A stretch of DNA of 64,000 nt from Burkholderiales bacterium (GCA_035548375.1 DASZTG010000021.1:138646-202645), one strand, 5' to 3'; positions 1,191 through 45,680 are shown, counted from the first letter of the stretch. Made by a program: numbers and translations. Notes: generated by a model not told the origin, from the sequence alone.

Positions 1191-1231
1191 CACCCAACGC
1201 AGAGGCGCAGAGGACGCAAAGGACGCAAAGC
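1191..1231. repeat. Cassette 1: solo arm of the CRCRRAGRR inverted-repeat family
   Basis: cacccaacgcagaggcgcagaggacgcaaaggacgcaaagc has the same terminus (CACCCAACGCA) and 9-nt units as the arms at 16985, 19362, 33399 and 35656. No partner arm was found up to 2168. Confidence 0.7.
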
Positions 1232-1456
1232 AAAATCATTAGGAATGGTACAGAGATTGGCGACGAGTTGAATTACAGCCACGAGTGGTGACAAAAGAAG
1301 AACGGGCTTATGCTATATGGGTACTGTAAATTTGGCAGTGGGTAATACGGCCGTTAAATGGCCGTAGGAGCGCAGCATTGTGAATAGAGGGCAGTCATTT
1401 GTCAGGTTAGCGGCTGGTGATACCTTAATTTCGACGTCTATGTAGGCTTTGTTGTT

Positions 1457-2014
1457 ATGAACGCGATCGATCCGCATCACTTTGATTCCATTCTTCGAGC
1501 CGTGCTCCAGGAGAGGCAAGCGATCGTATCCACTCATTGGAACGGCGCGCTCACACCCTTTACAACGCTTATGAAAACTGTGGTCCTGCCCGAAGTCGGT
1601 AGACGCCTTGGGCTTATACCTCATCCCTCCGAATACTATTCACTGGACTGTATCTATTTATCAGAGTACGACACAGAGCATTTTGGATCTGAGTCCGGGT
1701 ATCCGAAAGCATTCTCAGTAATCATCGAGCACGAAAACAATTCCAAGCAGTCTTGCGAAGAAATGAGCAAACTCCTCCTATTCAATTCGCCCTTGAAGGT
1801 GCTCATTACATATGCGCGCGCCGGGGAGGATCTGGAGGATCTTTTGGCGCGCTACGGCAAAATGATTGAAAACAGTGGAACAGCTGCGCTTGCCGTGAGC
1901 TCACAGAGAATTCTCGTCGTATTCGGCGATAATCCCGCAGGCAGTCCAACTTGGCGCTCGTACCTATACAATTACAGCGGCTTCATCGAGATTTCACCGC
2001 ATCTTCTCAAATAA
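1457..2014 (+). CDS. Hypothetical protein (185 aa) in a low-GC island
   Basis: Only long ORF in the visibly AT-richer stretch 1232-2168. No family recognised. The strand pattern LDCIYLSE / SVIIEHENNSK / KVLITYA / ILVVFGD could be a PD-(D/E)XK-like core, which is weak inference. Confidence 0.5.
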   Translation: MNAIDPHHFDSILRAVLQERQAIVSTHWNGALTPFTTLMKTVVLPEVGRRLGLIPHPSEYYSLDCIYLSEYDTEHFGSESGYPKAFSVIIEHENNSKQSCEEMSKLLLFNSPLKVLITYARAGEDLEDLLARYGKMIENSGTAALAVSSQRILVVFGDNPAGSPTWRSYLYNYSGFIEISPHLLK

Positions 2015-2168
2015 TAATTAGGGCAGGGGACAGTCCACCTTGTGGTGCTTAACAAGTGAAGATCAATTGCGGGCCGTATTCCTGGAATCCAAACTGCCTG
2101 CTTCCTGTCTCAAAGTTATTCACCCTAAGCTAGCGTTATCGCTTTTATAAGTCAGACCGATTCCGCTC

Positions 2169-3407
2169 ATGAGAATAACTAAAACGCTGCGAGCCCTGCT
2201 CGTCGTGGCCGCCTGTACATGCGCATCCCTCTGTGCTGCACAAGAGCCCATCAAGATCGCTCTTCTGGAACCGCTGAGCGGCCCCTTCGGTCTCGTCGGC
2301 GAAAGCATCAGCCGGCACATGCAGGCCGCGGTGGACGAGGTGAACGAGCACGGCGGCGTATTGGGCGGGACGAAGCTCGAGCTCATGCGCATGGACGACA
2401 AGCTCAGCCCGCAGGAGGGCGTGCTGCTGCTGAAGCATGCGATCGATGAGAAGGTGCGCATCGTCACGCTGGCTTCCGGCTCCAACATCGCGCACGCGCT
2501 GATCGAATCGATCGCCAAGCACAACGCCCGCAATCCGTCGGAGTCGGTGCTGTTCCTGAATTTCGGCGCGATGGACCCGGCGCTCACCAACGAGAAGTGC
2601 AACTTCTGGCATTTCCGCTTCGAGCCGAATACCGACATGAAGCTGAATGCCTTGACGGCTTACATGGCACACCAGCGGAAAATCCACGAGGTGTACTTGC
2701 TGAACGAGGACTTCGCCTACGGCCAGGCCATCAGCCGCGGGGCGAAGGAGCAACTGGCGCAGCGTCGCCCGGACGTCAAGATCGTCGGCGATGACCTGCA
2801 TCCTCTGCTCAAGGTGAAGGATTTCTCGCCCTATGTCGCGAAGGTCAAGGCGTCCGGCGCGGATTCACTGGTCACGGGAAATGGCGGGCCGGACATTTAC
2901 CTGCTGGTGAAGGCGGGCAAGGACGCGGGCCTCGACATCAATTACTACACGCTCAACGCCCATACCATCGGCGTTGCCGCTGCCATCGGCGGGGCGGGGG
3001 CCGACCGCATCAACCAGGTCCTGGCCTGGCACTCGAATGTTTCGCCCAACAAGCTGGAAGAGACCGCCGCCCGCTACAAGAAGCGCTTCAACGAGGATTA
3101 CTGGTACTACACGGCGAAGGTCGAGGTGGACATGCTGGTGAAGGCGATCAACCAGGCGCAGTCTGCGGATTCGCTCAAGATCGCGAAGGCGCTCGAAGGC
3201 CTGCGCATGCAAGGCGATACGGGCGAGCTGTGGATGCGAGCGGAGGACCATCAACTCGTGCAGCCTCTTTACGTGGCCACGTACAGGAAGGTGACGCCGC
3301 CGGCACACGACGTGGAAGGCATCGGATACGGCTGGCAGACCGATACCCGCATGGAAGGAAATGACACTGCCGTGCCGACCACCTGCAAGATGGAGCGGCC
3401 GGAATAG
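2169..3407 (+). CDS. Periplasmic substrate-binding protein, LivK/Peripla_BP_6 type (branched-chain amino acid/amide family), orphan
   Basis: Signal peptide MRITKTLRALLVVAACTCASLCAAQEP. IKIALLEPLSGPFG... and the length are typical of the Leu/Ile/Val-binding family. No adjacent permease genes. Confidence 0.8.
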   Translation: MRITKTLRALLVVAACTCASLCAAQEPIKIALLEPLSGPFGLVGESISRHMQAAVDEVNEHGGVLGGTKLELMRMDDKLSPQEGVLLLKHAIDEKVRIVTLASGSNIAHALIESIAKHNARNPSESVLFLNFGAMDPALTNEKCNFWHFRFEPNTDMKLNALTAYMAHQRKIHEVYLLNEDFAYGQAISRGAKEQLAQRRPDVKIVGDDLHPLLKVKDFSPYVAKVKASGADSLVTGNGGPDIYLLVKAGKDAGLDINYYTLNAHTIGVAAAIGGAGADRINQVLAWHSNVSPNKLEETAARYKKRFNEDYWYYTAKVEVDMLVKAINQAQSADSLKIAKALEGLRMQGDTGELWMRAEDHQLVQPLYVATYRKVTPPAHDVEGIGYGWQTDTRMEGNDTAVPTTCKMERPE

Positions 3408-3435
3408 CGTTGCCAGAACGCGTTCGCGGAGCGGC

Positions 3436-3921
3436 ATGCAAATCGAAGTCTTCAATCCGGCCTACGCGCAGGGCGTCGTCGACACCATCCTTCCCATCCA
3501 GCGCGAGGAATTCGGCATCCGGATATCCATCGACGACCAGCCGGATCTGAAGGACATCCCCGGTTTCTACCAGCGCGGTGCAGGCAACTTCTGGGTTGCA
3601 GTCGAGGACGATGCGGTCATCGGCACGATCGCGCTTCTGGACATCGGCAACAGGCAGGCCGCGTTGCGCAAGATGTTCGTGGCGAAGCCGTTTCGCGGTT
3701 CGGCCCGCAACGTCGCGCGTCAATTGCTGGATACGCTGATGCAGTGGTCGCGCGATCGAGGCATCGCGCAAATCTACCTCGGCACGACGCCCGCCTTCCA
3801 GGCCGCGCATCGCTTCTACGAAAAGCACGGATTCGTGGAAATCGCGAAAGAAGTGCTGCCCCCGGCTTTCCCGGTCATGAAGGTCGATACGAAGTTCTAC
3901 CTGCTTGCGCTGGCGCCGTAG
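3436..3921 (+). CDS. GNAT-family N-acetyltransferase
   Basis: ATG at 3436 inside track ORF 3361..3921. AVIGTIALLD...RKMFVAKPFRGSARNVARQLL...HRFYEKHGF matches GNAT motifs A/B. Confidence 0.75.
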   Translation: MQIEVFNPAYAQGVVDTILPIQREEFGIRISIDDQPDLKDIPGFYQRGAGNFWVAVEDDAVIGTIALLDIGNRQAALRKMFVAKPFRGSARNVARQLLDTLMQWSRDRGIAQIYLGTTPAFQAAHRFYEKHGFVEIAKEVLPPAFPVMKVDTKFYLLALAP

Positions 3922-4331: not shown

Positions 4332-5129
4332 ATGAGGAGATTGGAAGGTCAAACCGCGCTTGTGACCGGTGCCGGTCGCGGCATCGGCGCGGCGATGGCA
4401 CTCGCGTATGCGCGCGAGGGTGCACACGTGGCCGTGACGGACCTGAGCGAAGCCGGCATCAATGGGGTGGCGGAACAGGTCCGGGCGCTCGGCGTGCAGG
4501 CGGAAGCTTTCGTCGTCGACGTGCGCGAGCCCGCGCAAACGGCGGCGATGGTCGAGCGCGTGGCGAAGCGATTCGGCCGGCTGGACCACATGGTCAACAA
4601 CGCCGGCGTCATCCGCGTGAAATCTTTCCTGAATACGACACCGGAAGATTGGGATTTCATCCAGTCAGTCAACGTGCGCGGACTGTTCTTTGCGTTGCAA
4701 GCGGGTGCACGGCAGATGCTGAAGCAATCGCCGCTCGCCGAGGGCCGGCCCAACGGCAAGATCCTGAACCTGGCATCCATCGCCGGGCGTGGCGGCCGGC
4801 CGATGCTGGCAGCCTATGCGGCGAGCAAGGCCACCGTGATCAATATCACGCAGACCGCGGCGCTGGAGTTCGCGCCGCGCGTGGCCGTCAACGCGATCTG
4901 CCCTGGTCCGGTGGATACGGACATGTGGAAGCTGATCGACGACGAGTGGACGAAGATCGAAGGCAAGCCGCCCGGCGCGGTCTGGAAGGAACGCACGCGC
5001 GCGATTCCTATGGGCCGTCCCGAGAAACCCGACGACCTGACCGGCATGGCGGTTTTCCTCGCCAGCAAGGAAGCCGACTACATCACCGGGCAGTCGTTCA
5101 ACATCGACGGCGGGCTGGTGCCGATGTGA
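4332..5129 (+). CDS. SDR-family oxidoreductase
   Basis: ATG 4332 inside track ORF 4233..5129. TGAGRGIG, NNAG and YAASK motifs. Confidence 0.85.
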   Translation: MRRLEGQTALVTGAGRGIGAAMALAYAREGAHVAVTDLSEAGINGVAEQVRALGVQAEAFVVDVREPAQTAAMVERVAKRFGRLDHMVNNAGVIRVKSFLNTTPEDWDFIQSVNVRGLFFALQAGARQMLKQSPLAEGRPNGKILNLASIAGRGGRPMLAAYAASKATVINITQTAALEFAPRVAVNAICPGPVDTDMWKLIDDEWTKIEGKPPGAVWKERTRAIPMGRPEKPDDLTGMAVFLASKEADYITGQSFNIDGGLVPM

Positions 5130-5144: not shown

Positions 5145-5909
5145 CTATTCCAGTCCGGGCCGCCAATCGTCCCCGGGATTCCACTGGAACGACGTACGCG
5201 CAGTGACGCCCGGCTTCAAGCGGCGATCCGGCCCATAGTCCGCGAGCGGGTGGAAAAAGAGCGGCGCGTCCGCCAGCAAGGAGTCCAGCCGATTCCGCAA
5301 AGCGTCCAGCATAGCCACTCGTGCCGGCTCGTCGATCAGCCCGATGCCGTGCGCGATGAACGGCGGCAGCACGTCGAAGCCGACGTAGCGTAGTACCCCG
5401 TTCTGGAGCGGCCACAGGATGCGGTGGATGTCGCCGTCCATGCCGTCGGGCGCGAATACGCTTTCCCTTGCGCCGGTCGTGACGGATACCAGTGCCCGCC
5501 GTCCCTTCAACAGGCCGTCCTCGAATCTTTGCGTGGGCGTGTAGGCGAAGCCGTAGGTCATCACGCGGTCGATCCAGCCCTTCAGGATCGCCGGGGGGCC
5601 AAACCACCACATCGGGAATTGCAGTATGAGCACCTCGCACCAGCGCAATTTTTCCTGCTCTTCTTCGATTTGAGGCACGTAACCAGAACCGGCCAGGGCG
5701 TGCTTCATCTCTGCGCGATACTCGTAGACGTCGGGATTTGCCCTTTCCGTGTAATCGGCGGGCCCGGCCGAGGGATCGAATCGTTGGGCGTAGAGGTCCG
5801 AGACCCGGACCTGATGACCGCGTGCATTCAGATGATCCATCGCCGTCTGCAGCAGCGCGCCGTTGAAGGATTTCGGCTCCGGGTGGGCAAAAACGAATAG
5901 TATTTTCAT
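5145..5909 (-). CDS. NAD(P)H dehydrogenase (quinone), Flavodoxin_2/NQO1-like
   Basis: ATG at 5909 (MKILFVFAHPEPKSFNGAL...). LILQFPMWWFGPPAILKGWIDRV is the family hallmark. The upstream 75 codons of the track ORF are discarded. Confidence 0.8.
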   Translation of the reverse strand: MKILFVFAHPEPKSFNGALLQTAMDHLNARGHQVRVSDLYAQRFDPSAGPADYTERANPDVYEYRAEMKHALAGSGYVPQIEEEQEKLRWCEVLILQFPMWWFGPPAILKGWIDRVMTYGFAYTPTQRFEDGLLKGRRALVSVTTGARESVFAPDGMDGDIHRILWPLQNGVLRYVGFDVLPPFIAHGIGLIDEPARVAMLDALRNRLDSLLADAPLFFHPLADYGPDRRLKPGVTARTSFQWNPGDDWRPGLE

Positions 5910-5991
5910 GTTGTCGAAGGGGTTATTGACCGGTGATCCGGTCGCGCGAGGAACGCAATATGCCATGCTCGAAATTATCCGGCGCCGCTCG

Positions 5992-7632
5992 ATGCGAGGA
6001 AGGCCTGTGAATCGGAACCTGCACGTCGCCGCTTTCGTCTTCGTGGTCGCGATATTTTCCGCGGCCGCGTGGGCCGACGAGCATGCCGCGCATGCTCTGG
6101 GCAAGGTGGATTTCCCCGCGAGTTGCGCAAGCACGGTGCAAGTAGACTTCGATCGCGCGGTGGCCTTGCTGCATCACATGACGTATCCGCAGGCGCGCGA
6201 AGCGTTCGCGAAAATCGCGGCCGCCGATCCGGGTTGCGCGATGGCGCACTGGGGCATCGCCATGACGCTGTTCCAGCCATTGTGGCCGACGCGCCCCGAC
6301 CTGGATACGCGCGCGCGAGGATGGGATGAGGTGCAGAAGGCCATCGCGCTGAAGCCACCGACAGAGCGGGAACGCCTGTTCATCGCCGCGGCTGCCGCAT
6401 TTTTCCAGGAGCCGGCGTCGAACGACTATTGGCTACGAATTCGTCGCTGGGAGCAGGCCCAGAAACAAGCTGCCGACGCCTACCCGGATGACGACGAGGC
6501 CCTGGCGTTCTACGCGCTTGCGCATCTTGCAGTTGCGCCTGCGGATGCGACTGCGCGCCGCTATTCCGATGAATCCGCCGCCATGCTGATGCGCGTCTAT
6601 CGCCACAATCCCGATCATCCCGGCGCCATGCATTACCTCGTCCACGCGAACGATGTGCCCGGGCGGGAACGCGAATCGCTGGAGATCACGCGCAAGTACG
6701 AATCGGTCGCACCGCGCAATCCGCACGCGCTGCACATGCCCACCCACATTTACACGCGCCTCGGTGACTGGGACGGGGTGATTCGCGGGAACCTGCTTGC
6801 CGCGGATGCGGCGCTGGAATTTCCCGCGGGCGATCGCGGCCAATACGTCTGGGACGAGTTTCCGCATGCAATCGAATACCTGGTCTACGCCGATCTCCAG
6901 AAGGGCCGGGATACCGCTGCCGCGGCGCAAGTGCAGCGTTTGCGTGAAACGGCGAATCTCGAGCCCACTTTCAAGACGGCCTTCCACCAGGCATCGACGC
7001 AGGCGCGATATGCGCTGGAGCAACGCGACTGGGTCGCGGCGGCGGCGATCGTGCCGCGCGAACCCGCTTCCGTCGATTGGGATCGCTTTGCCTGGCCCGA
7101 AGCGATCTCCCGCTTCGCGCGCGGACTGGGCGCGGCTCACCTCGGCGACCTCGATGAAGCGCGGGCGCAGCGCGCGGCACTCCAGCGCCTCGAGGATGCA
7201 ATGGCCAAGGCGGGCGAGGACTTGTTCGCGCGCAACATTCGCATGCTCGGCCTCGAGCTGGCAGCCTGGCGCGCGCACATGGAAGGGAAATACGAATCCA
7301 GCATCGGGTTGATGATCGAGGCGTCCGAACTCGAGGCTTCCACGCCCAAGCATGCCGTGACGCCCGGCCCGACCTTGCCGGCCGACGAACAGCTGGGGGA
7401 CATGCTCATGGAGCAGGAGCAGGCGCCCGCCGCGCTCGTCGCCTACCAGCGCGCGCTCGAACACTACCCTCGCCGGTTCAACAGCCTGCTTGGCGCGGCC
7501 CGCGCGGCACGCACGGTTCGCAACGACGAAGCCGCGCGTGCCTTTTACCAGGAACTTCTTGCGGTGGCGGGCGACGGCGAGCGCAAGCCGGCCGTGCTGG
7601 AAGCCAGAAGCTTTCTGGCCCAAAAACGCTGA
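5992..7632 (+). CDS. Exported helical-repeat (TPR-like) protein, unknown function
   Basis: ATG 5992 gives MRGRPVNRNLHVAAFVFVVAIFSAAAWA, a signal-like N-terminus. The protein is long and Ala/Leu-rich with repeated helical character. The start is uncertain; 5965 is an alternative. Confidence 0.55.
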   Translation: MRGRPVNRNLHVAAFVFVVAIFSAAAWADEHAAHALGKVDFPASCASTVQVDFDRAVALLHHMTYPQAREAFAKIAAADPGCAMAHWGIAMTLFQPLWPTRPDLDTRARGWDEVQKAIALKPPTERERLFIAAAAAFFQEPASNDYWLRIRRWEQAQKQAADAYPDDDEALAFYALAHLAVAPADATARRYSDESAAMLMRVYRHNPDHPGAMHYLVHANDVPGRERESLEITRKYESVAPRNPHALHMPTHIYTRLGDWDGVIRGNLLAADAALEFPAGDRGQYVWDEFPHAIEYLVYADLQKGRDTAAAAQVQRLRETANLEPTFKTAFHQASTQARYALEQRDWVAAAAIVPREPASVDWDRFAWPEAISRFARGLGAAHLGDLDEARAQRAALQRLEDAMAKAGEDLFARNIRMLGLELAAWRAHMEGKYESSIGLMIEASELEASTPKHAVTPGPTLPADEQLGDMLMEQEQAPAALVAYQRALEHYPRRFNSLLGAARAARTVRNDEAARAFYQELLAVAGDGERKPAVLEARSFLAQKR

Positions 7633-7681
7633 CAATAATGGTACGCAGCAAGATACCTTCACGAATATCGCGAATCCAATC

Positions 7682-10340: not shown

Positions 10341-10814
10341 ATGTTCGATCTGCAGACTTACACTTTGTTTCATGTCGTGCTGAGCCTGGTCGGCATCGTC
10401 GCCGGCCTGGTCGTCGTGGGAGGATTGATGTCAGGCGTGCGCCTGGATCGATGGACGCACGTTTTCCTGGCAACGACGTTGCTGACCAGCATCACCGGCT
10501 TCGGCTTTCCATTCACCGGGCTGCTGCCTTCGCACATGACGGGGATCGTGTCGCTGATCGTGCTGGTGCCGTGCTTCATGGCCCTCTACCTGAAGGGGCT
10601 GGGCGGCGGCTGGCGCAAGGTCTACGTGATCACGGCGGTGACGGCGTTGTGGCTGAACGTCTTCGTGCTGCTGGCCCAGCTGTTCCTGCGCGTACCGGCG
10701 CTCAACCAGCTTGGCCCGACGCCGAAGGATCCCGCATTCGCGATCACGCAATTGATGGGGCTCGTGCTATTCATTGTCATCGGGCGTGCGGCGTGGAGGG
10801 GATTTCGTAACTAG
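10341..10814 (+). CDS. Integral membrane protein (4-5 TM), unknown function
   Basis: GGAGGGGG lies 6 nt upstream of ATG 10341 (the track starts at GTG 10338). Hydrophobic throughout. Confidence 0.6.
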   Translation: MFDLQTYTLFHVVLSLVGIVAGLVVVGGLMSGVRLDRWTHVFLATTLLTSITGFGFPFTGLLPSHMTGIVSLIVLVPCFMALYLKGLGGGWRKVYVITAVTALWLNVFVLLAQLFLRVPALNQLGPTPKDPAFAITQLMGLVLFIVIGRAAWRGFRN

Positions 10815-15714: not shown

Positions 15715-15737
15715 CGACTAGAGCTCTCGATCATAAA

Positions 15738-15920
15738 TCTCATCACGAAGACACGAAGGGCACGAAGAAATGCAAATGCGACAATGTTGAAAATTGTTTT
15801 CATTCCAGGTGAGCAATCGGACATCGCAACGTCTTGAGTAGACCTACGGTGATTTCGTGCGAGTTCTTTTTTTTGACCTTCTTCGTGTTTCTTTGTGTCC
15901 TTCGTGTCTTTGTGATGAGA
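15738..15920. repeat. Cassette 2: inverted-repeat cassette, CACGAAG flavour
   Basis: The left arm is tctcatcacgaagacacgaagggcacgaagaaa. The reverse complement of the right arm (15877-15920) begins tctcatcacaaagacacgaaggacacaaagaaa, matching at 30/33. The spacer is 106 bp. Confidence 0.85.
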
Positions 15921-15921
15921 A

Positions 15922-16977
15922 TTAGATGGCTGTGGGTATTGCGACGCCGAGTTTTTCGCTCCACGGCTGCAGCGCTGGCAGGATGCCGGGATACAGTTCC
16001 ACGCCGTCTTTCAATTGCTTCTCGCGTCGGCGCAATCCGGATTCGCCGGGCAGGCGTACGCGATCGAAGCCCGGGCGCGGCGGGGTGTTGCGGCATGCGT
16101 TCGCGATCCATTCGGTCTGGCGCACGAAGTCGTCCTCGCCGCCGAACAGCCGCGGATCGAACACCTGGACGTAGACGTTCGCGGCCCAGCCTTCATTCGG
16201 ATCTGCGCGCCCGTGACCGGACAGGCCCTGCGTCAATGCTTCGACCAGCAGGCCGAGCGAGTAACCCTTGTGGCCGTGGTCGAGTCCGCCGATCGGCAGC
16301 AGTCCGCCCTTGGGCTCATTGAACACGACGGCGGGATCGTCGGACGGATTGCCGTGGCCGTCGAGCACCCACTGGCCCGGCAGCTTGCGCTTCTCGCGAT
16401 TCAGGCGGCCGGTGAGGCCGTGCGTCGTGATCGACATGGACACGTCGATGATGACCGGGTCGCCCTTCGTCGGCCACGCCGCGGCGATCGGATTCGGCGT
16501 GTGCGTGCCGGTGCCCTTGCCGCCGTGGGGTACCACGCCGCCGACTTCCGGACCGGACGAGATCAGCATCACCATCATGCCCTGGTCCGTGACTTTCTTG
16601 AGGTAGGCCGCGAGGCAGGCGATGTGATGGCTGCGACGGATCGTCACCGTGCAGGTGCCAAGTGTCTTTGCGCGTTCCAGCGCGAGGTCGATCGCCGTTG
16701 CGGTCAGCCACACGCCGGGAAGACGCATCCCGTCCCAGGTCACCGCCGCGGGAAAATCCGCGATCACGCGCGGACTGCCCGACTTCGCCATGCCGCCTTT
16801 TTCGAGGTCGTTCAGATAGGGCGCCAGCAACTGCAGGCCATGTGTCGTGTGGCCGAGCAGGTCGCCCTCCACGAGAACCTCCGCGACGACTTTGGATTTG
16901 TCATGATCGAGCCCGGCCTTGTCGAGCAGGGCCGTCGCGTAGGTGATCAGTTCGGATGATTTGTATTTATCGGACAT
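15922..16977 (-). CDS. Ldh_2-family (malate/L-lactate/sulfolactate type) NAD(P)H-dependent dehydrogenase
   Basis: 351 aa. GDLLGHTTHGL and the overall layout fit the family. Confidence 0.8.
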   Translation of the reverse strand: MSDKYKSSELITYATALLDKAGLDHDKSKVVAEVLVEGDLLGHTTHGLQLLAPYLNDLEKGGMAKSGSPRVIADFPAAVTWDGMRLPGVWLTATAIDLALERAKTLGTCTVTIRRSHHIACLAAYLKKVTDQGMMVMLISSGPEVGGVVPHGGKGTGTHTPNPIAAAWPTKGDPVIIDVSMSITTHGLTGRLNREKRKLPGQWVLDGHGNPSDDPAVVFNEPKGGLLPIGGLDHGHKGYSLGLLVEALTQGLSGHGRADPNEGWAANVYVQVFDPRLFGGEDDFVRQTEWIANACRNTPPRPGFDRVRLPGESGLRRREKQLKDGVELYPGILPALQPWSEKLGVAIPTAI

Positions 16978-16984: not shown

Positions 16985-17172
16985 AACCCAACGCAGAGAC
17001 GCAGAGGAAAAAGAGTTCGCAGAGGAAACGGAATGAACTAGAGGGGTATGGATTATGACCTGGATATCATCGCGCCTTCCCTCTTGAACATCGTCGAGCG
17101 TTCTGACTGGATCCTCCAACTGCTATTACTCTGTGTTCCTCCGTTATTCTCTGCGCCTCTGCGTTGGGTGTA
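16985..17172. repeat. Cassette 3: inverted-repeat cassette, CGCAGAG flavour
   Basis: The left arm is aacccaacgcagagacgcagaggaaaaag... The reverse complement of the right arm (17129-17172) is tacacccaacgcagaggcgcagagaataacgg... The first roughly 25 nt match and the inner parts diverge. Confidence 0.8.
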
Positions 17173-18331: not shown

Positions 18332-18500
18332 AATCGGAACCACGGAGAACACGGAGTAAACGGAGAGAAAAGAGATGGGGAAAGAATGGTGTGGCGCGCT
18401 CTTCAAAATCGATCGCCTGCACGGATCGATTCCTGTGCAACAACTCCTTCCGCTTTATGTTTTCTCCGTGCCCTCCGTGATCTCCGTGGTTCCGGATTGG
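18332..18500. repeat. Cassette 4: inverted-repeat cassette, CACGGAG flavour
   Basis: The left arm is aatcggaaccacggagaacacggagtaaacggagagaaaag. The reverse complement of the right arm (18460-18500) is ccaatccggaaccacggagatcacggagggcacggagaaaa. Confidence 0.85.
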
Positions 18501-19361: not shown

Positions 19362-19557
19362 GTACACCCAACGCAAAGGCGCAAAGGACGCGAAGAACGC
19401 AAAGGAAATCAATGGAATTGAAGTGGCGGCAAGCCGATCTTGCCGCTGCGAAATTTGCCAATGTTGTGGGCTTCATTCGAAGCGATTCGTTTCCCCTCCT
19501 TGACTTCGCGTTTCTTTGCGAACTCTGCGTCCTTTGCGCCTTTGCGTTGAGGTGTAT
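19362..19557. repeat. Cassette 5: inverted-repeat cassette, CGCAAAG flavour
   Basis: The left arm is gtacacccaacgcaaaggcgcaaaggacgcgaagaacgcaaaggaaa. The reverse complement of the right arm (19504-19557) is atacacctcaacgcaaaggcgcaaaggacgcagagttcgcaaagaaacgcgaag. Confidence 0.85.
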
Positions 19558-32230: not shown

Positions 32231-33391
32231 TCACGCGGCGATGGCGGACGGTCGAGAATGGCGCAGCGAGCGCGCGAGATCGGTCAGGCTGTCGATGTTG
32301 TGGGCCGGCAGGAAAGCGTCGACATGCGGCAACATCAGTTTCACGCCCGCGGCTTTCGGCTCGAAATCCTCGAAGCGCAGCAGCGGATTCAGCCAGATCA
32401 ACTGGTGGCACGACTTGTGAAGGCGTTCGATCTGCTTGCCGAGGTCGTCGCCAGGATCGCGGTCCAGCCCGTCGCTGATCAGCATGACCACGGCGTTCTG
32501 GCCGAGCACGCGGCGCGACCAGCGCTGGTTGAATTCCTTCAGGGTGGCGCCGATGCGAGTGCCGCCCGACCAGTCCTCGACCAGTCCCGATACCGCGTTG
32601 AGCGCGACATCGACGTCGCGATGCCGCAGTTGCCGCGTGATGTTGGTGAGTCGCGTGCCGAACACGAAGCTCTGCACGCGGTCGCGATCGTTCGTGATCG
32701 CGTGCAGGAAGTGCAGGAACATGCGCGAATAACGGCTCATCGAGCCGGAGATGTCGCACAGCACGACGAGCGGCGGATGCAGCTTGCGCACGGAACGCCG
32801 GCGCAGCGGAATGACGTCGGCGTTGCCCCGCAGGCTTGCACGCAAGGTCGCACGCAGGTCGACGTGCCTTCCCCGGGCGTCCGGATGCAATCGCCGCGTC
32901 GCCACCTCGGGGATTGGCAGCCGCAGTCCGGCGATGAGCTTCTTCGCCTCGGCGAGTTCTTCCGACGTCATGGTTTCGAAGTCCTTGCGCTGCAATTTTT
33001 CCAGGTCGGACGCGCTCAACAGGACCTCGGGTTCCTCGTCCTGGTAGCCGGCCTTCATCGGCATTTTCCGCGTGAGGCCGAGCGCCTCCGCGATGCGGTT
33101 CGGTGCCTTGTTCGGATCGGTTTTCATGCCGGTGGCGGACGGCAGGGCGGGCATCGCCTGTTCCAGCAGGTGGCGCTCGCGCCAGAACAGTTTGAACGCC
33201 TGGTCGAATAGTTCGAAATGTTCGCGACGCGAGAGGAATACCGACGCCAGCGTCCAGTAAAAATCCTCGCGTCGCTCGATGCCGGCGATCTGCAGCGCGC
33301 GCAGGCCGTCGAGCACGCGATCGGGACCGACGGTAATGCCGGCGCGGCGCAGCGCGCGGGCAAAATGGGCGATGTTTTCAGCGAGCTTCAT
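32231..33391 (-). CDS. coxE: vWA-domain protein, CoxE-like maturation factor
   Basis: MKLAENIAHFARALRRAGI... is a CoxE-type N-terminus. MIDAS motif VVLCDISGSMSRY. Confidence 0.85.
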   Translation of the reverse strand: MKLAENIAHFARALRRAGITVGPDRVLDGLRALQIAGIERREDFYWTLASVFLSRREHFELFDQAFKLFWRERHLLEQAMPALPSATGMKTDPNKAPNRIAEALGLTRKMPMKAGYQDEEPEVLLSASDLEKLQRKDFETMTSEELAEAKKLIAGLRLPIPEVATRRLHPDARGRHVDLRATLRASLRGNADVIPLRRRSVRKLHPPLVVLCDISGSMSRYSRMFLHFLHAITNDRDRVQSFVFGTRLTNITRQLRHRDVDVALNAVSGLVEDWSGGTRIGATLKEFNQRWSRRVLGQNAVVMLISDGLDRDPGDDLGKQIERLHKSCHQLIWLNPLLRFEDFEPKAAGVKLMLPHVDAFLPAHNIDSLTDLARSLRHSRPSAIAA

Positions 33392-33831
33392 CTAGTGCCT
33401 ACACCCGACGCAAAGGCGCAAAGAACGCAAAGGTCGCGAAGAAGGACAACAAGTTGGAGATTGTTAACGACACGCTTGATAGATTGACGCAGAACGGCAG
33501 AGTTGAAGTTGATCAGTAGTCCAAGCTTCTTATCGGAAAGGCGCAGATAACTCAGGAGCTGGGCTTCATGAACTGGAAGAACATGCTCGATCGATTTGAC
33601 TTCGACGATCAGCATGTCGTTTACCAGTATATCCAGACGCAAACTACCTTCCAGCCGCTGACCCTTGTAGATAACCTCGACTTCCGCTTGCCGGGTTACC
33701 GCGAGCCCTCTCGATTTCAGTTCGATCGCAAGAGCTTCTTCGTAGAGGAATTCCAGAAGACCGGGGCCAAGCTCTTTGTGCACTTCGATCGCCGCGCCGA
33801 TAACTTCATGGGATAGGGCATTTTCATCCAT
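33388..33831 (-). CDS. GxxExxY protein (PD-(D/E)XK nuclease-fold, PDDEXK_3-like)
   Basis: GLLEFLY is the GxxExxY motif. RLDILVND...IVEVKS is a D...ExK core. The last roughly 20 codons (LLRDLCVLCAFASGVGTR) are the translated repeat arm. Its stop overlaps the coxE start (ATGA). Confidence 0.85.
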   Translation of the reverse strand: MDENALSHEVIGAAIEVHKELGPGLLEFLYEEALAIELKSRGLAVTRQAEVEVIYKGQRLEGSLRLDILVNDMLIVEVKSIEHVLPVHEAQLLSYLRLSDKKLGLLINFNSAVLRQSIKRVVNNLQLVVLLRDLCVLCAFASGVGTR

Positions 33832-33932
33832 CCGCGTTCCCCCAAAGCTCCGATGGCACTGGCGCGCCCCGTCGTCTCGCTGGCTTTCCTTTGCGACCTT
33901 TGCGTTCTTTGCGCCTTTGCGTTGGGTGTAGA
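33399..33932. mobile_element. Cassette 6: full-length inverted-repeat cassette carrying a GxxExxY ORF
   Basis: The left arm is ctacacccgacgcaaaggcgcaaagaacgcaaaggtcgcgaagaagg. The reverse complement of the right arm (33885-33932) is ctacacccaacgcaaaggcgcaaagaacgcaaaggtcgcaaaggaaag, about 44/47 identical. The arms bracket a 439-bp lower-GC insert between coxD and coxE. Confidence 0.8.
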
Positions 33933-35655: not shown

Positions 35656-35845
35656 TTACACCCAACGCAAAGGCGCAAAGGACGCAAAGAAAGACGAAAA
35701 ACATTCTGGATAAATGAGCCCAAGCATGGCTTGCCATGCCGGGAAGTCATCCTTGGATTGCGAGTGCCACCGAATGGATTCGTTTTCTGATTCATTCTTG
35801 CTTGGCGTTTCCTTTGCGTTCTTTGCGCCTTTGCGTTGGACGTGG
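35656..35845. repeat. Cassette 7: inverted-repeat cassette, CGCAAAG flavour, between coxS and coxM
   Basis: The left arm is ttacacccaacgcaaaggcgcaaaggacgcaaagaaagacg. The reverse complement of the right arm (35805-35845) is ccacgtccaacgcaaaggcgcaaagaacgcaaaggaaacgc. The spacer is 103 bp. Confidence 0.85.
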
Positions 35846-35855
35846 GGTTTCGGCG

Positions 35856-36320: not shown

Positions 36321-36473
36321 GGGGTTTTCCCTTCTTGGGCAGGTAGCGCCGGAACGAGCGGCGAGCCGCAATCGTAGACGGCCAGGGCGGCGGCGGCAAC
36401 CGGTACGCCGTTTTCGGACGTGGCGTAAAATCCTGAGGGTTCGCATCCAATACTAAAGACGGGACATAACCCC

Positions 36474-38777
36474 ATGGCAAAGTTCGGGATCGGTCAGGCA
36501 ATGACGCGCAGGGAGGACCAGCGACTGCTGTTCGGCGCCGGCCAGTACGTCGACGACGTGGTGCTGGCAAACGAAACCTTCCTGGCGTTCGTGCGTTCGC
36601 CGCACGCCCACGCCCGGGTCAAATCGATCGATGCGACGCAGGCCAGGAAGATGCCCGGCGTGGTTGCCGTGTTGACGGGCGCCGATCTCAAGGCCGACGG
36701 CATCGGCCCGATTCCGGATGGCGCGGGATTGAAGCGGGCAGACGACAAACCGATGGTGGGCGCGCCGCATGACGTGCTGGTCGTCGACAATGCGCGTTAC
36801 GTCGGACAGCCGGTTGCCGCCGTGATCGCGCAAACCAGAATCCAGGCCGAAGACGCTGCCGAACAGGTCGTCGTGGACTATGAAGAATTGCCCGCGGTCG
36901 TAACCATCGACGCCGCAACCGCAAAAGGCGCCCCGGTCATCTGGCCGGATGCTCCGGGCAACATCGCCGCGCAGACCGAGTTCGGCAAGAAAGACGTCTG
37001 CGACGCGGCTTTCGCCAAGGCGAAGCACGTCACCAGGCTGTCGCTCTACAACCAGCGACTCGTGCCGGTCAGCATGGAGCCGCGCGGCAGCATTGCCGAA
37101 TTCGACGCGGCCAGCGGTCGCGTGACCTTGCGCACGAGCTGCCAGAATCCGGCCGGGTTGCAGAAGACACTTGCGGAAGCCTGCCTGAAGGTGCCGGCAA
37201 AGGACGTCCGCGTAATCGTCGGCGACGTCGGCGGCGGCTTCGGCATGAAAACCCAGCTCTACGCCGAGGACGTGGTGTGTGCATGGGCCGCGCGCAAGCT
37301 CAAGCGCCCCGTGCACTGGCGTGCAAGCCGCAGCGAGGAATTCCTCGGCGGCAATCACGGCCGCGATCAGGTCAACCATGCGGAAATGGCGTTCGATGCG
37401 GAAGGCAAGATCCTCGGCCTGCGCGTGGACATCATCGGCAACATTGGCGCACACGCCAGCGGCCCGGGCGCGGTGATCGTGGTTGCGGTCGGGCCCAAAG
37501 TGATCACGGGCGTCTACCACATCCCCGCGCTGCACCTGCGCGGCACGGCCGTCATGACCAATACCAACCTTGTCGGCGCCTATCGCGGCGCAGGGCGTCC
37601 CGAGGCGATTTATCTGCTCGAGCGCCTGATGGACCAGGCTGCGGCGGAAATGAAAATGGATCCGGCGGAACTGCGCCGGCGCAATTTCATCCAGCCCTCG
37701 CAAATGCCCTACAAGACGCCGATGGGCGAGAAGTTTGACAGCGGCAATTTCCCGCACATGCTGGACCGCATCCTCGAGGCCGCGGACTGGAAAGGCTACC
37801 CGTCGCGTCGCGAGGAATCGAAGAAGCGCGGCAAGCTGCGCGGTCGTGCCTTGTCCACGTTCCTGGAATGGACGGGCGTCGTGCACGAGGAGACGATCAA
37901 CCTGCATGTCGAGGCCGACGGTCGCGTGCTGGTCTATACCGCGATGCAGGCCATGGGGCAGGGCATCGAGACCAGCTACGTGCAGATCCTTTCCGAGACG
38001 CTGGACATCGATCCGGACAAGATCGTCATCGTGCAGGGCGACAGCGACGTCGCGCAGGGCATCGGCAGCATGGGCAGCCGCTCGCTGTATATCGGCGGCT
38101 CCGCGATGCTGACCGCATCGAAGCAAACCATCGAAAAGGGCCGCGAGCTTGCCGGTGACGCGCTCGAGGCATCCGGGCACGACATCGAGTATCGCGACGG
38201 GCGTTTCAAGGTCGCGGGCACGGATCTCGGCATCGGTCTTTTCGATCTGGCTGCGAAGCAGCCCGCGAAACGCATCGCGATCCAGACGCTGCAGAAAGTC
38301 GACGGCCCGTCCTGGCCGAACAGCTGCCACGTCTGCGAGGTCGAGATCGATCCCGAGACCGGCGTCACGCAGATCGTGCGTTACACGACCGTCGACGACG
38401 TGGGCCGCGTGATCAATCCGATGATCGTTGCCGGACAAGTGCACGGCGGCATCGCGCAGGCGGTCGGCCAGGCGCTGCTCGAGAACACCCACTACGATCC
38501 CGAAACCGGCCAGCTTATCACCGGTTCGCTGCTGGATTACTGCCTGCCGCGCGCCGACGACCTGCCGAGCTTCGACACGCACACCGACGAAACGACGCCG
38601 TGCAAGATCAACCCGCTCGGCGCCAAGGGCGTCGGCGAGCTCGGCACGGTGGGCGGCACGCCAACGGTCATGAACGCGGTGATCGACGCGTTGCGGCCGA
38701 TGGGCGTCAAGCAGATCGAGATGCCGGCCACGCCGGAGAAAGTCTGGCGGGCGATCAACCAGGCAAAAGCTGCGTGA
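36474..38777 (+). CDS. coxL: Form-II CoxL-like molybdopterin large subunit, second copy, divergent from its coxS-coxM partners
   Basis: 767 aa with the AYRGAGR loop. Same family as 26396..28801. Confidence 0.85.
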   Translation: MAKFGIGQAMTRREDQRLLFGAGQYVDDVVLANETFLAFVRSPHAHARVKSIDATQARKMPGVVAVLTGADLKADGIGPIPDGAGLKRADDKPMVGAPHDVLVVDNARYVGQPVAAVIAQTRIQAEDAAEQVVVDYEELPAVVTIDAATAKGAPVIWPDAPGNIAAQTEFGKKDVCDAAFAKAKHVTRLSLYNQRLVPVSMEPRGSIAEFDAASGRVTLRTSCQNPAGLQKTLAEACLKVPAKDVRVIVGDVGGGFGMKTQLYAEDVVCAWAARKLKRPVHWRASRSEEFLGGNHGRDQVNHAEMAFDAEGKILGLRVDIIGNIGAHASGPGAVIVVAVGPKVITGVYHIPALHLRGTAVMTNTNLVGAYRGAGRPEAIYLLERLMDQAAAEMKMDPAELRRRNFIQPSQMPYKTPMGEKFDSGNFPHMLDRILEAADWKGYPSRREESKKRGKLRGRALSTFLEWTGVVHEETINLHVEADGRVLVYTAMQAMGQGIETSYVQILSETLDIDPDKIVIVQGDSDVAQGIGSMGSRSLYIGGSAMLTASKQTIEKGRELAGDALEASGHDIEYRDGRFKVAGTDLGIGLFDLAAKQPAKRIAIQTLQKVDGPSWPNSCHVCEVEIDPETGVTQIVRYTTVDDVGRVINPMIVAGQVHGGIAQAVGQALLENTHYDPETGQLITGSLLDYCLPRADDLPSFDTHTDETTPCKINPLGAKGVGELGTVGGTPTVMNAVIDALRPMGVKQIEMPATPEKVWRAINQAKAA

Positions 38778-38793
38778 CTTTCGTTGCGCCATG

Positions 38794-42938: not shown

Positions 42939-42964
42939 GTTACCCGAACGCCTCCGCCGATCGC

Positions 42965-43807
42965 ATGGCCGATCTCTGGAATGTCGACTGGCTGACGCGC
43001 TCGGACATGTTCGCGCCGTTGCGGGTGGCGGGTGGCCGGCTTCCGGACATCGGCTGGCCGAATCCCGAGTTGCTCAATGCGATGGCGGACGCGGGCGGCC
43101 GGATCGTCAACGCGCAGGGCACGCGCGTGCGCTTCGTGAACCCGTCCCGGGCCGGCAAGGGATTCGAGGACGGGTTCGAGCCGCGCGCTTACCTGAAAGG
43201 CGAGGTGCAGGTGCGCCCGCTCGACTGGCACGACCTCTTCAACGCGCTCGTCTGGATGACGTTTCCGACCGCCAAGGCCGTCATCAACGCGCGTCACTAC
43301 GAAACCCTTTCAAGTGCGGCGTCTTCCAGCAGGAGCGCGGTCGGCGATGCATTGACCATGTTCGACGAAGACGGCGTGGTCGTGCTTTCCAGCGACACTG
43401 AGTTGCTGGAACTGGTGCGCGCGTTTCGGTGGAAGGAGTTGTTCTGGAAGCGACGCGAGGACGTCAGGAAACGCATGCGCTTCTTCCTCTTCGGTCATGC
43501 GCTCTACCAAAAAGCGCTCAATCCTTTTGTCGGCATGACGGGCAAGGCCATCTTGCAGGCAGTCCCGGATTCGTTCGCCAACCTGTCCACGCCCGCGCAA
43601 GTTGCGCAGGCGGACCGGCTGGTCGCCGCATATCTGTGGGACCGGTCCCGCATGAACGGCGGTCGGGAGCTATCACCGCTGCCGGTGCTTGGCGTGCCTG
43701 GCTGGCATGCGGCAAACGAGGAAGAGCGCTTCTACGAGGACAGCGGCTACTTCCGGCCGGGGCGAAGCAACGACCTGCTTCAGCCTGCGTCGCCGTCGGC
43801 GGAGTAG
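42965..43807 (+). CDS. DUF3025 domain protein
   Basis: ATG 42965. WHDLFNALVWMTFPTAKAVINARH matches my recollection of DUF3025. The 3' end overlaps the convergent GGDEF gene by 28 nt. Confidence 0.55.
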   Translation: MADLWNVDWLTRSDMFAPLRVAGGRLPDIGWPNPELLNAMADAGGRIVNAQGTRVRFVNPSRAGKGFEDGFEPRAYLKGEVQVRPLDWHDLFNALVWMTFPTAKAVINARHYETLSSAASSSRSAVGDALTMFDEDGVVVLSSDTELLELVRAFRWKELFWKRREDVRKRMRFFLFGHALYQKALNPFVGMTGKAILQAVPDSFANLSTPAQVAQADRLVAAYLWDRSRMNGGRELSPLPVLGVPGWHAANEEERFYEDSGYFRPGRSNDLLQPASPSAE

Positions 43808-44850
43808 GCGATGACGCGGTTGCGGCCGCGTTGCTTCGCGCGGTACATGGCCTTGTCGGCCTTGTCGAGAATCACATCGAGATTGCCGCCGTCGTCCGGA
43901 TAGCTGGCCACGCCGAGGCTGACCGTGAGGTTGGTGTCGCCGTTGCGGACGTCGAAGCGCGAGACCTCCACGGCCTTGCGAATGCGCTCGGCCATTTCCA
44001 TGGCGCCCTTGTTGTTGGTCTCCGGCAGCAGCACGATGAATTCGTCGCCCCCGAAGCGGGCCATGACGTCGGAGCCGCGAAGCTGCTCGCGGATGCAGCG
44101 AACCACGTGCTGGAGCAGGCGGTTGCCGGTCTCGTGCCCGTGCGTGTCGTTGATCTGCTTGAGGTTGTCCGAGTCGATCATGACGACCGACATGGCGTGG
44201 CCGTAGCGCACCGATTGCCGGAAAGCCCGCTGCAGCATCGATGAGAACGCCCGCATGTTGTAGGTGCCGGTGAGCTCGTCGGTGTCGGACACCTGCTTGA
44301 TCTTGTCCACCGCGTAGCGAATGTCTCCCGAAAGCATCGTGGTGATATAGGCGACCAGAATGATCGGCGCCGATATGGCCAGCAGCTCGGCCCAGAACGG
44401 CATGGTGAGCAGCGTTTTTGATTTCGGGTTGTAGGAAAAGAACATCAGGCAGGCCACGATCGCGCCGACTTTCAGCGCGGTCGGCAATTTCCCGAATATG
44501 AGCGCGCTGGCAATGACCGGAAGCAGGTAGAGGTTCAGCAGCGGACTGCCGATCTGGCCGGTATACCAGACAACCCAGGTGATGAAGACGATCATCACCC
44601 AGGTTTCGAACATCAGCTTGGAGCGGTTCTCCAGCTTGTAGAAGCTGATGTAGTGCAGGCCGAGGATGAAGGCGGTGAAGAAGAACAGCGCCATGTGGAT
44701 GGCCGTTCTGCCATCTTCCGGCGAGCCTCCCGCAAGCAGGTAAACGAGTACGAGGCCTAGAAGCAACCACTCGATTTCCGCGATGGTCCTGGAAAAACCC
44801 TTCAGCTCGTCCTGTTCGATGGTCAGGCCGATGTTTGTTCTTGTCAGCAT
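43780..44850 (-). CDS. Membrane-anchored diguanylate cyclase (GGDEF)
   Basis: ATG 44850 (MLTRTNIG...). About 6 TM segments, then DELTGTYNMRAF...RFGGDEFIVLL...RAKQRGRNR. Confidence 0.85.
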   Translation of the reverse strand: MLTRTNIGLTIEQDELKGFSRTIAEIEWLLLGLVLVYLLAGGSPEDGRTAIHMALFFFTAFILGLHYISFYKLENRSKLMFETWVMIVFITWVVWYTGQIGSPLLNLYLLPVIASALIFGKLPTALKVGAIVACLMFFSYNPKSKTLLTMPFWAELLAISAPIILVAYITTMLSGDIRYAVDKIKQVSDTDELTGTYNMRAFSSMLQRAFRQSVRYGHAMSVVMIDSDNLKQINDTHGHETGNRLLQHVVRCIREQLRGSDVMARFGGDEFIVLLPETNNKGAMEMAERIRKAVEVSRFDVRNGDTNLTVSLGVASYPDDGGNLDVILDKADKAMYRAKQRGRNRVIAYSADGDAG

Positions 44851-45047
44851 GGATTTCGGATGGGCCGTTTCCTTAAGTTCTGGCGCAGCGTCTTTGATTT
44901 TGCTGGCAGAAACTCCGCAAAGACTAAATGGTTTCTGCCGCCAAAGCCAGAGCCTCGTTACATTTGGGAGAACGCACCCCTCCCTGATTTCTCCGACGGC
45001 ACCGGCCCCGTCTGGGTGATTTCGGCCAGTCTTCTCGGGGCAGATTG

Positions 45048-45075
45048 TTGACTTGATCCGAGGCAATGCTACACT
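45048..45075 (+). promoter_or_regulatory. Sigma-70-type promoter TTGACT-N16-TACACT upstream of rubrerythrin
   Basis: Direct read. Followed at 45087-45101 by the dyad TTAGA-TTTAG-TCTAA, nested in gccgtt(45083)...aacggc(45117). Confidence 0.45.
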
Positions 45076-45170
45076 CGGTTTAGCCGTTAGATTTAGTCTA
45101 ATTGTCGATTGAACGGCCAAAATGCGCGCCGTTCGAGTCATACAACGCAGGGAAAAAACAGGAGGCCAGC

Positions 45171-45593
45171 ATGAAAGCACTGAAGGGTTCGAAGACCGAG
45201 CAAAGCCTGAAGGACGCGTTCGCGGGTGAGTCCCAGGCGAACCGCCGCTATCTCTATTTCGCAGCGAAGGCCGACGTGGAAGGCCAGAACGACGTCGCAT
45301 CGATTTTCCGTTCGACCGCCGAAGGCGAAACCGGGCACGCCCACGGCCACCTTGAGTACCTCGAAGCTTCGGGTGATCCGGCAACCGGCCTGCCGATCGG
45401 CCGCTCCCGCGACAACCTGAAGGCGGCGATCGCGGGCGAGACGCACGAATACACCGACATGTATCCCGGCATGGCAAAGAATGCCCGCGACGAAGGTTTC
45501 GACGAAATCGCGGACTGGTTCGAGACGCTCGCGAAGGCGGAGCGTTCCCACGCGAACCGTTTCCAGAAGGCCCTGGACGCGCTGGCAGACTGA
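45171..45593 (+). CDS. Rubrerythrin-family diiron protein lacking the rubredoxin domain
   Basis: GGAGG then ATG 45171. E...ExxH pairs (ESQANRRY / [10 protein letters not shown] / GETHEY / KAERSH). No C-terminal CxxC. Confidence 0.85.
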
Positions 45594-45602
45594 CGTTGCA
45601 CT

Positions 45603-45680
45603 GAAGGGAGAAGGGTAAAGGGGGAAGGGCGAGAGCTCTCCGGCACGAGGCTTTTCCCCTTCACGCCTTCCCCCTTTCTC
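45603..45680. repeat. Cassette 8 (possible relative): purine-tract/pyrimidine-tract inverted repeat, GAAGGG flavour
   Basis: gaagggagaagggtaaagggggaagggcgagag ... cttttccccttcacgccttccccctttctc. A 12-nt perfect pairing joins aaagggggaagg (45617-28) and ccttcccccttt (45666-77). The central palindrome is gagagctctc. Confidence 0.4.

Follow-up and report, generated by a model that had tools for sequence, protein, structure and literature searches.

Hairpin-forming inserts with arms of tandem short units between the genes of a betaproteobacterial operon

The subject of this study is a set of purine-rich repeats in a 64,000-nt stretch of DNA from a Burkholderiales bacterium (GCA_035548375.1 DASZTG010000021.1:138646-202645), called the window below and numbered from its first letter. 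The host lineage is an uncultured soil betaproteobacterium, represented by Burkholderiales-type metagenome-assembled genomes. The repeats are copies of a widespread and apparently undescribed family of hairpin-forming inserts located between genes that belong to the same operon. The literature was searched by family names and by the literal repeat strings, and no description of these repeats was found. Each complete insert, or cassette, has a left arm of tandem short units and a right arm that mirrors it, and variants of the unit are called flavours. Flavours are shown here to mark the lineages of cassette families and to be uniform across the units of an element, in both arms. We read the elements as selfish palindromic intercistronic cassettes, similar to the intervening sequences (IVSs) of rRNA, that are under concerted evolution and whose stem would be cut by RNase III. 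The probability of this reading is placed at roughly 0.55, with most of the doubt on the RNA step.

Detection and anatomy of the inserts

The window was found to contain six inverted-repeat elements that are complete (B–G) and a solo arm (A), a density of ~1 element per 9 kb. The doubled unit CRCRRAGRRCRCRRAGRR occurred 8 times against 0.01 expected. A scan for clusters of single units recovered the arm pairs 15744/15881, 16992/17129, 18341/18464, 19372/19504, 33409/33889 and 35666/35812 together with an unpaired run at 1198. In these pairs a purine-rich run on the plus strand was followed 100-450 nt downstream by its pyrimidine-rich mirror. In a generic inverted-repeat search of the 64 kb, the arm pairs, which are 86-95% complementary, ranked with the longest. 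Because the loops of 100-550 nt have no conservation, a profile of the arms was used instead of a covariance model. This nhmmer profile, trained on other genomes only, matched exactly 13 arms and nothing else in the window.

The first-pass annotation had named generic low-complexity purine tracts as a finding that would dissolve the pattern. Purine-rich coding repeats do occur in the window, for example at 63541-63574, a run that was rejected as an arm because it is Lys/Ala-rich coding sequence. The arms, however, are intergenic and form inverted pairs, which together with the arm profile and the repeat counts shows that they are not generic purine tracts. Chance or low complexity is refuted as an explanation and its probability is negligible.

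An arm consists of a short terminus followed by 2-5 tandem units of 8-9 nt. The terminus types are ACCCAAC, TTCACC, CTCAAC and GAACC, and ACCCAAC is the most frequent, with 19 occurrences among those counted. Each unit is C-R-C-R-R-A-G followed by a linker of 1-2 nt that varies, the first repeat being mostly 8 nt and later repeats 9 nt. The CRCRRAGRR unit proposed in the first pass therefore holds over its first seven positions, while the ‘RR’ at positions 8-9 is approximate and corresponds to the linker. The flavours listed there, the termini CACCCAAC, TCTCATCAC and GGAACCAC, and the odd peptides encoded by the units (TQRTQ, AKDAK, HEDTKGTK, TENTE) were all recovered. Between the arms lies either a non-conserved spacer of ~100 nt or a gene for a 125-aa GxxExxY nuclease of the PD-(D/E)XK type.

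All arms are intergenic, and each of the 6 complete elements has co-directional minus-strand genes on either side. These host genes are EamA, Ldh_2, ADH, SDR and HI0933-like, followed by coxE, coxD and the genes of the FAD and [2Fe-2S] subunits. An element starts 0-18 nt past the upstream stop codon. Stem length across the elements is 30-45 bp. The sense RNA of element E folds at -107.9 kcal/mol (z = -10.5), and the other elements also fold into end-to-end stems. At gathering thresholds Rfam had no family for the elements, and its sole match in the window was one tRNA gene (53975-54048, 63 bits). A permissive Rfam scan of 15.6-19.7 kb produced chance matches only, and a promoter and terminator scan detected no enrichment. 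When ~40 open reading frames (ORFs) of the window were compared with Pfam, no integrase, tyrosine recombinase, transposase or RAYT was found.

The elements and related features of the window are as follows.

Element A, 1193..1233: solo purine-rich arm, terminus CACCCAAC, CGCAGAG/CGCAAAG units; arm profile E 1e-6
Element B, 15734..15924: arms 15738-15776 and 15878-15921 (inverted repeat 37 nt, 89%), terminus TCTCATCAC, CACGAAG/CACAAAG units, loop ~110 nt; Ldh_2 stop to EamA start, both minus strand, the outer end overlapping the Ldh_2 stop codon
Element C, 16985..17172: arms 16988-17026 and 17127-17168, terminus ACCCAAC, CGCAGAG units; ADH stop to Ldh_2 start
Element D, 18332..18494: arms 18338-18374 and 18454-18491 (inverted repeat 35 nt, 86%), terminus GGAACCAC, CACGGAG units; SDR stop to ADH start
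Element E, 19362..19555: arms 19367-19408 and 19511-19551 (inverted repeat 39 nt, 87%), terminus CACCCAAC, CGCAAAG units; HI0933-like stop to SDR start
Element F, 33399..33931: cargo-bearing cassette, arms 33399-33441 and 33889-33931 (43 nt, 95%), CGCAAAG units; between coxD (AAA) and coxE
Cargo of F, 33457..33831, minus strand: 125-aa GxxExxY/PDDEXK_3 nuclease-fold protein, same strand as the flanking cox genes
Element G, 35656..35846: arms 35661-35699 and 35806-35842 (inverted repeat 31 nt, 94%), terminus CACCCAAC, CGCAAAG units; [2Fe-2S] subunit stop to FAD-subunit start in the cox-type cluster
Hairpin H, 45603..45680: purine-rich arms of the GAAGGG type, with rubrerythrin on one side and a CCG-domain gene on the other; -43.6 kcal/mol

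The cassette first annotated at 1191 is a real copy of the arm, but it is a solo left arm; downstream of it there is no partner, just an AT-richer stretch of 0.9 kb. This stretch (1240-2160) is possibly foreign DNA that displaced the right arm of A. It contains a 185-aa ORF (1457-2014, plus strand) that had no match in Pfam, NCBIfam, PADLOC or PHROGs. The GAAGGG variant at 45603, tentatively proposed as a further member, folds well but does not match the arm profile, and by that profile Hairpin H is outside the family.

Arm co-variation, flavour and sequence constraint

The arms were also examined in related genomes (loci designated L001 and so on). The operon is syntenic across related genomes and species, with ADH orthologues reaching 94% protein identity in species-level genomes. 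Elements were plentiful in related betaproteobacterial loci and absent from the alphaproteobacterial and more distant loci retrieved by the same query. The unit scan was a regular expression fixing C1, C3, A6 and G7. Bracket-matching of arms generated 58-66 elements, whose loop lengths were bimodal (~100-150 nt and 350-550 nt).

The first-pass annotation held that each right arm mirrors its own left arm and that the two co-vary between elements, and flavour, identity and paired-cell tests all agree with it. The majority heptamer was identical in both arms of 44/65 pairs, compared with 9.0 expected by permutation (maximum 21 in 5,000 trials). Left arms had an identity of 0.81 with their own right arms and 0.65 with the arms of other elements; the own partner ranked first in 19/58 cases and within the top five in 40/58. 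For the paired-cell analysis 52 arm-pairs were aligned without gaps. Standard pairs occupied 89.1% of cells, compared with 63.7% after shuffling. Cells changed on both sides numbered 547 (213 shuffled). The covariation score was 0.718, compared with 0.266 for shuffled partners and 0.12-0.24 when the partner was slid by 1-3 columns. Since the arms are inverted repeats in DNA, this pattern is expected from any process by which one arm is maintained as a copy of the other.

Two classes of position within the unit behave differently. Linker positions (8-9) agreed at 0.71 for same-index units of the two arms and at 0.47-0.49 otherwise. The confinement of this match to same-index units indicates that arm symmetry is in register, as a stem requires. 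Flavour positions (2, 4 and 5) agreed at 0.87-0.91 for unit pairs within an element, irrespective of arm or index, compared with 0.53 between elements. Flavour is homogenised across the whole element, and pairing in a stem does not demand that. Concerted evolution, visible as uniform flavour combined with in-register mirror arms, accounts for the co-variation of the arms. Neighbouring cassettes, which had seemed unusually different in flavour, are not: 10/25 adjacent pairs share a flavour where 4.9 are expected.

Conservation of the arms does not extend to the loops. In five species compared at the orthologous Ldh_2|EamA site, arm identity was 74-97% and loop identity was at random level (z = 0 to 2.6). 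Arms in other phyla were located by an inverted-repeat search around GxxExxY genes that was independent of the motif. Around these genes C1, C3, A6 and G7 recurred together with the termini TTCACC and GAACC, and the unit and termini were found again in Bacteroidota, Alphaproteobacteria and Gemmatimonadota. Bacteroides finegoldii has the arms TTCACCACAGAGGACGCAGAGGACACGGAG / ...GGTGAA, Sphingomonas parapaucimobilis the arm TTCACGCGAAGGCGCGAGGACGCGA and Gemmatirosa the arm GAACCGCAGAGGACGCAGAGGGCCGCAGAGGA; those of Bernardetia are similar. Prevotella, Treponema and a fusobacterium have shorter or AT-richer unit variants (ACAAAT, CACGGAT, CACAGAT). Conservation of units and termini in distant phyla, and of arms over random loops, argues that the sequence is not free. 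Judged by these comparisons, arm sequence is constrained well beyond pairing. Of the earlier description ‘pairing kept, sequence free’, the first half stands, since the arms are paired and in register; the second half fails on the constraint across phyla and on the element-wide uniformity of flavour. That the hairpin rather than a protein-binding word is selected does not follow from the present evidence.

The related loci contain several irregular forms. Elements can be nested, with correctly nested flavours (L021 7445[7500..7643]7689; L034 5747[5794..5889]5923). Solo arms and deletion remnants occur, for example at coxD|coxE in L001 and at the Ldh_2|EamA site in L002. Genomes without CRCRRAG elements at ADH|Ldh_2 (L002, L003, L006, L013), at SDR|ADH (L005, L013) or at L066 5824-5976 carry other tandem-unit motifs there. 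Three kinds were seen: runs of CGTGACG that lack a mirror arm, hairpins built from 7-nt GGCAC[GT]AG units, and a hairpin of CGCCAAGA units with half an element nested inside. The two arms may also differ in length, with seven CACCAAGGA or CACCAAGA units in one arm and two or three in its partner (L017 4741-4801; L012 1685-1739). Unit count is unstable, as slippage would predict.

A second, smaller palindromic element of ~36-40 nt (ATACCC[GT]ACG..GTACCCTTTTAG, or ATACCCGACGTGCnnnGCACGTCGGGTAT) was observed inside arm units after CRCRG. It is present at L007 6356-6400, L003 8294-8364, L016 803-853 and L014 ~900-940 and at the D sites of L010 and L001. In L173 it occupies mirror positions of both arms (~1440-1475 and ~1880-1915), and in some loci it forms the entire hairpin tip.

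Cargo nuclease and exchange of cassettes

Every long-loop element found in the window and the related loci carries a gene for a 125-aa GxxExxY/PF13366 protein. The cargo of element F was matched by Pfam PF13366 (E 3e-41, 140.8 bits, cut-off 22) and by TIGR04256 (E 5e-43, 146 bits, cut-off 35). Across 34 homologues, neither the motif residues (G24, E27, Y30) nor the catalytic-type residues (D67, E77, K79) varied. The structural model (pLDDT 92) has a generic PD-(D/E)XK fold; its nearest neighbours, Cas4 and lambda exonuclease, are weak, generic matches at TM ~0.5. No solved relative was found by sequence, PADLOC offered a marginal Cas4 match only, and PHROGs offered none.

About 10 independent insertions were counted, and in all of them the cargo reads in the direction of its neighbours. 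The sites include coxD|coxE, hsdR|hsdM, ADH|Ldh_2, the region upstream of coxD, radA|FAD protein and fabD|fabG. Close homologues of the window cargo are all at coxD|coxE. Short loops were considered as deletion derivatives of the cargo gene, and this was rejected because tblastn found no cargo remnant in them. No cargo of the four-helix-bundle type was seen in the loci examined.

The arms also affect gene prediction, since they give rise to false ORFs and to unusual C-terminal tails, for example ...LRDLCVLCAFASGV on the cargo protein of the window. The reading frame of the cargo of F has no stop before the arm and continues through it to 33388 (window 33388-33456). Read-through adds the tail ...QLVVLLRDLCVLCAFASGV, giving a predicted protein of 147 aa, and this tail looks like an annotation artefact of the repeats.

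Similar arrangements were observed with other genes and other arms. In L083 a type I restriction-modification operon has a second GxxExxY gene (5470-6040), 41% identical to that of the window, located between hsdR and hsdM; the arms on either side of this gene consist of CGCAGAT-type units. L030 carries a DUF559 gene (PF04480, E 4e-41; annotated as of unknown function) at its SDR|ADH site (4620-5030), between the G-rich inverted arms GGGGAGGGCCGGGGAGAGGG / CCCTCTCCCC..., which is the design of the GxxExxY cassette with a different gene family. Hairpin H (45603-45680) may be related to this G-rich-arm kind, and perhaps is an empty version of it.

Comparison of closely related loci defined the unit of exchange. 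L083 and L173 are 94% identical in coxE protein and ~90% identical in the DNA of the flanks. Their cassettes share 17-73% identity in DNA and their cargo proteins 67%, with CGCAAAG arms in L083 and CGCAGAG arms in L173. Identity falls exactly at the coxD stop codon and returns at the right terminus. The cargo tree conflicts with the host tree. These comparisons show that the cassette, arms plus cargo, is inherited and exchanged as one block at fixed intergenic sites. In L083 the right terminus and flank TTGGGTGTTGCCTTAG were also seen directly duplicated just before the coxE start (10405-10440), and in part in the 3' flank of L173.

The first-pass annotation had proposed asking whether flavour correlates with cargo. 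It does: flavour follows the lineage of the cargo nuclease, not that of the host, and moves with the cargo as a block. Co-inheritance or recognition by a protein would explain this just as well as structure would. CGCAAAG is carried by the window, L083 and L193 (72-77% cargo identity), and CGCAGAG by L002, L046, L173 and L103 (68-82% cargo identity), the last at a different site. L183 has the indel flavour CGCAAAAG in both arms.

Comparisons of loops and elements agree with inheritance of the cassette as a block. A homologous loop was found at non-orthologous sites in L008 and L046. The SDR|ADH loops of L004 and L044 match on opposite strands (84% over 49 nt), which suggests inversion of the loop by recombination between the arms. 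L007 and L010 are 95% identical in the DNA of ADH and yet have wholly different elements at two sites. A change of flavour in situ was rejected for this pair in favour of allelic replacement, because the elements, the flanks and even the first Ldh_2 codons differ.

One further feature of the window concerns a neighbouring gene. Two long ORFs, encoded on opposite strands and adjacent to the [2Fe-2S] subunit gene of the cox-type cluster, overlap nearly completely (36453-38792). The minus-strand ORF (779 aa) had no Pfam match at 1e-5, although the large molybdopterin subunit is expected there.

Interpretation and comparison with known systems

The mechanism that we favour has several steps. Slippage among tandem units, together with conversion between arms and between copies, would homogenise the flavour. 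The cassette would be transcribed within the operon mRNA, where the 30-45-bp stem would loop the insert out. RNase III probably cuts that stem, as suggested by its length and by analogy with the 23S IVS of Coxiella. Cutting would limit the harm of insertion and free the cargo mRNA. Short elements and solo arms would be products of decay, and, more speculatively, the nuclease might help its own cassette to spread or persist.

Several observations count against this reading. Its RNase III step is drawn from analogy. Transition mismatches between arms that are G:U-compatible numbered 55 on the sense strand and 85 on the antisense strand; there is no sense-strand excess, and nothing therefore shows selection on an mRNA stem. 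The sample of short elements was centred on one operon. Other unit types exist (CGCCAAG, GGCACKAG, CGCAGAT, ACAAAT) and the regular expression fixes four positions, so the family is broader than the scan and its limits are blurred. Because most close homologues of the cargo are at coxD|coxE, independent cargo insertions in this lineage are few. No insertion event was observed as such. No clean strain-level pair of filled and empty sites was found, the nearest relatives being either at most 94% protein-identical (metagenome scan) or contigs identical to the window (exact-protein look-up), and no target-site duplication was found at the ends of the window, Bacteroides or Sphingomonas cassettes.

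The hairpin could instead act in DNA, an explanation that we consider possible but lean against. The arms would then be recognition and cleavage sites of the GxxExxY nuclease as well as recombination homology, and the elements would spread by homing or transposition. The nuclease would cut cognate arms as duplex, hairpin or cruciform, and repair would copy the cargo cassette into the site. Flavours would be specificity classes co-evolving with the nuclease and short elements non-autonomous derivatives. This explanation agrees with the RNase III reading on what the elements are and differs only on where the hairpin acts. It draws on the invariant catalytic D..E-x-K and GxxExxY residues in a PD-(D/E)XK fold nearest to Cas4 and lambda exonuclease, on unit and terminus sequences kept across phyla, and on a flavour that tracks the cargo clade rather than the host. 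Block replacement with breaks at the arm ends fits it too, as do copies that share arms and differ in loops, which arm-mediated cassette exchange would yield. So do the absence of an RNA wobble signature and the presence of a second small nuclease family, DUF559, in an analogous cassette. However, the GxxExxY family is listed as of unknown function (PMC3424549), with no known nuclease activity or target. Cargo copies are few, many of them at one site over long divergence, and only 1/7 window elements has cargo. Linkage by itself accounts for the correlation of flavour and cargo, and strict co-orientation with host genes is not expected of a purely DNA-level mechanism. A still wider proposal, which we regard as unlikely, is that small stand-alone PD-(D/E)XK nucleases (GxxExxY and, in parallel, DUF559) drive homing cassettes in bacteria generally. 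Here the arms would combine a flavour-specific recognition site with homology for copying into cognate empty hairpins, rRNA intervening sequences would be the same elements in rRNA genes, and flavours would be specificity classes co-evolving with the enzyme.

Service to the host is improbable. RNA or DNA hairpins acting as mRNA stabilisers, processing sites or translational couplers would be selected for pairing only, with their sequence drifting. The strong compensatory pattern and in-register linker match, the very stable folds and the location between co-directional genes are what such hairpins would show, and tandem-heptamer hairpins of the short tandemly repeated repetitive (STRR) type between cyanobacterial hupS and hupL are proposed as stabilisers or couplers (PMC2670836). 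The sequence is nevertheless conserved far past the needs of pairing, flavour is uniform within arms, and the sense strand shows no excess of G:U. At the corresponding sites related genomes have no such element or an unrelated hairpin, and nesting, solo arms and nuclease cargo point to selfish DNA. Integron attC sites are far less credible still. Their core sites R''/R' are RYYYAAC ... GTTRRRY. The termini ACCCAAC, the commonest type, and GCTCAAC fit this pattern (ACCCAAC...GTTGGGT), and genes split by imperfect palindromes resemble a cassette array; TTCACC, GAACC and TCTCATCAC do not fit. The arms are long continuous helices of tandem units, not R/L boxes with an unpaired central spacer. No tyrosine recombinase was found among the ~40 window ORFs, and the genes around the elements form an operon whose synteny is conserved between species.

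In a common soil lineage, the elements amount to a substantial genome component that annotation has missed. A single sequence-defined architecture ties together GxxExxY genes, hundreds of ‘empty’ intercistronic hairpins per genome, and rRNA intervening sequences. How the latter arose and move has been a standing question ever since they were discovered (PMC4990558). The GxxExxY/PDDEXK_3 family is very large: 7,998/8,000 candidates scored at E <= 1e-10. Arms of defined flavour provide substrates for testing both RNase III processing and nuclease-driven spread, and cultured carriers exist in Bacteroides finegoldii (radA|GxxExxY) and Sphingomonas parapaucimobilis (fabD|GxxExxY|fabG).

Among known repeats, three classes resemble the elements but each fails on defining features. 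REP sequences are short imperfect palindromes (20-40 nt) with a GTAG-type head, and the cognate RAYT is a Y1/HUH transposase. Like REP/REPIN-RAYT systems, the elements are high-copy extragenic palindromes that form hairpins, are nested or clustered between genes, and are associated with a single-copy enzyme gene that has the same repeats on either side. Unlike them, they have no GTAG-type head, their arms are 30-45-nt arrays of tandem units, and their loops are long and unrelated between copies. The repeat-flanked gene encodes a PD-(D/E)XK protein, with no RAYT among the ~40 ORFs scanned in the 64 kb of genome examined. Miniature inverted-repeat transposable elements (MITEs) of bacteria such as Correia, ERIC and Nezha share the terminal inverted repeats, the intergenic location, the nesting and the longer gene-carrying relatives with the same ends. 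The present elements differ from MITEs in that they have no visible target-site duplication and no internal sequence common to copies except at orthologous sites, and their gene-bearing relatives encode no known transposase. As with integron attC sites, they are imperfect palindromes between co-directional genes with structure conserved more than sequence, and one terminus type fits; in contrast to attC, no integrase is present in the ORFs scanned, the bulged layout of R and L boxes is missing, and the genes on either side are core genes in conserved order.

The cyanobacterial STRR sequences are likewise arrays of short tandem units between cistrons (for example hupS-hupL) with the capacity to form hairpins, and they are proposed to stabilise transcripts or couple translation (PMC2670836). 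Their units are of 7 bp, with other sequences, and occur in filamentous cyanobacteria, whereas those examined here are 8-9 nt and betaproteobacterial; the text consulted mentions no defined termini, cargo gene or arm flavours for STRR.

The nearest known design is the intervening sequence of 23S rRNA (Coxiella burnetii, Leptospira, Salmonella). The Coxiella IVS is a selfish insert of 428 nt with a 28-bp stem of terminal inverted repeats and a small internal ORF (PMC4990558). Its 5' part has three tandem GACAGAT heptamers whose number varies by strain; RNase III cuts inside the stem, and the mechanism of mobility is unknown (PMC4990558). The elements described here differ in lying between protein-coding cistrons rather than in an rRNA helix, and there is no rRNA in the window. 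Their cargo is a GxxExxY/PF13366 PD-(D/E)XK protein and not the S23p four-helix bundle, their units are of the 8-9-nt CRCRRAG type, and most copies have no ORF; RNase III excision, shown in Coxiella, is inferred here. What they share with the 23S IVS is an insert of a few hundred nt with complementary termini forming a long stem (30-45 bp here), tandem short repeats, an optional small ORF in the direction of the host transcript, and a character regarded as selfish.

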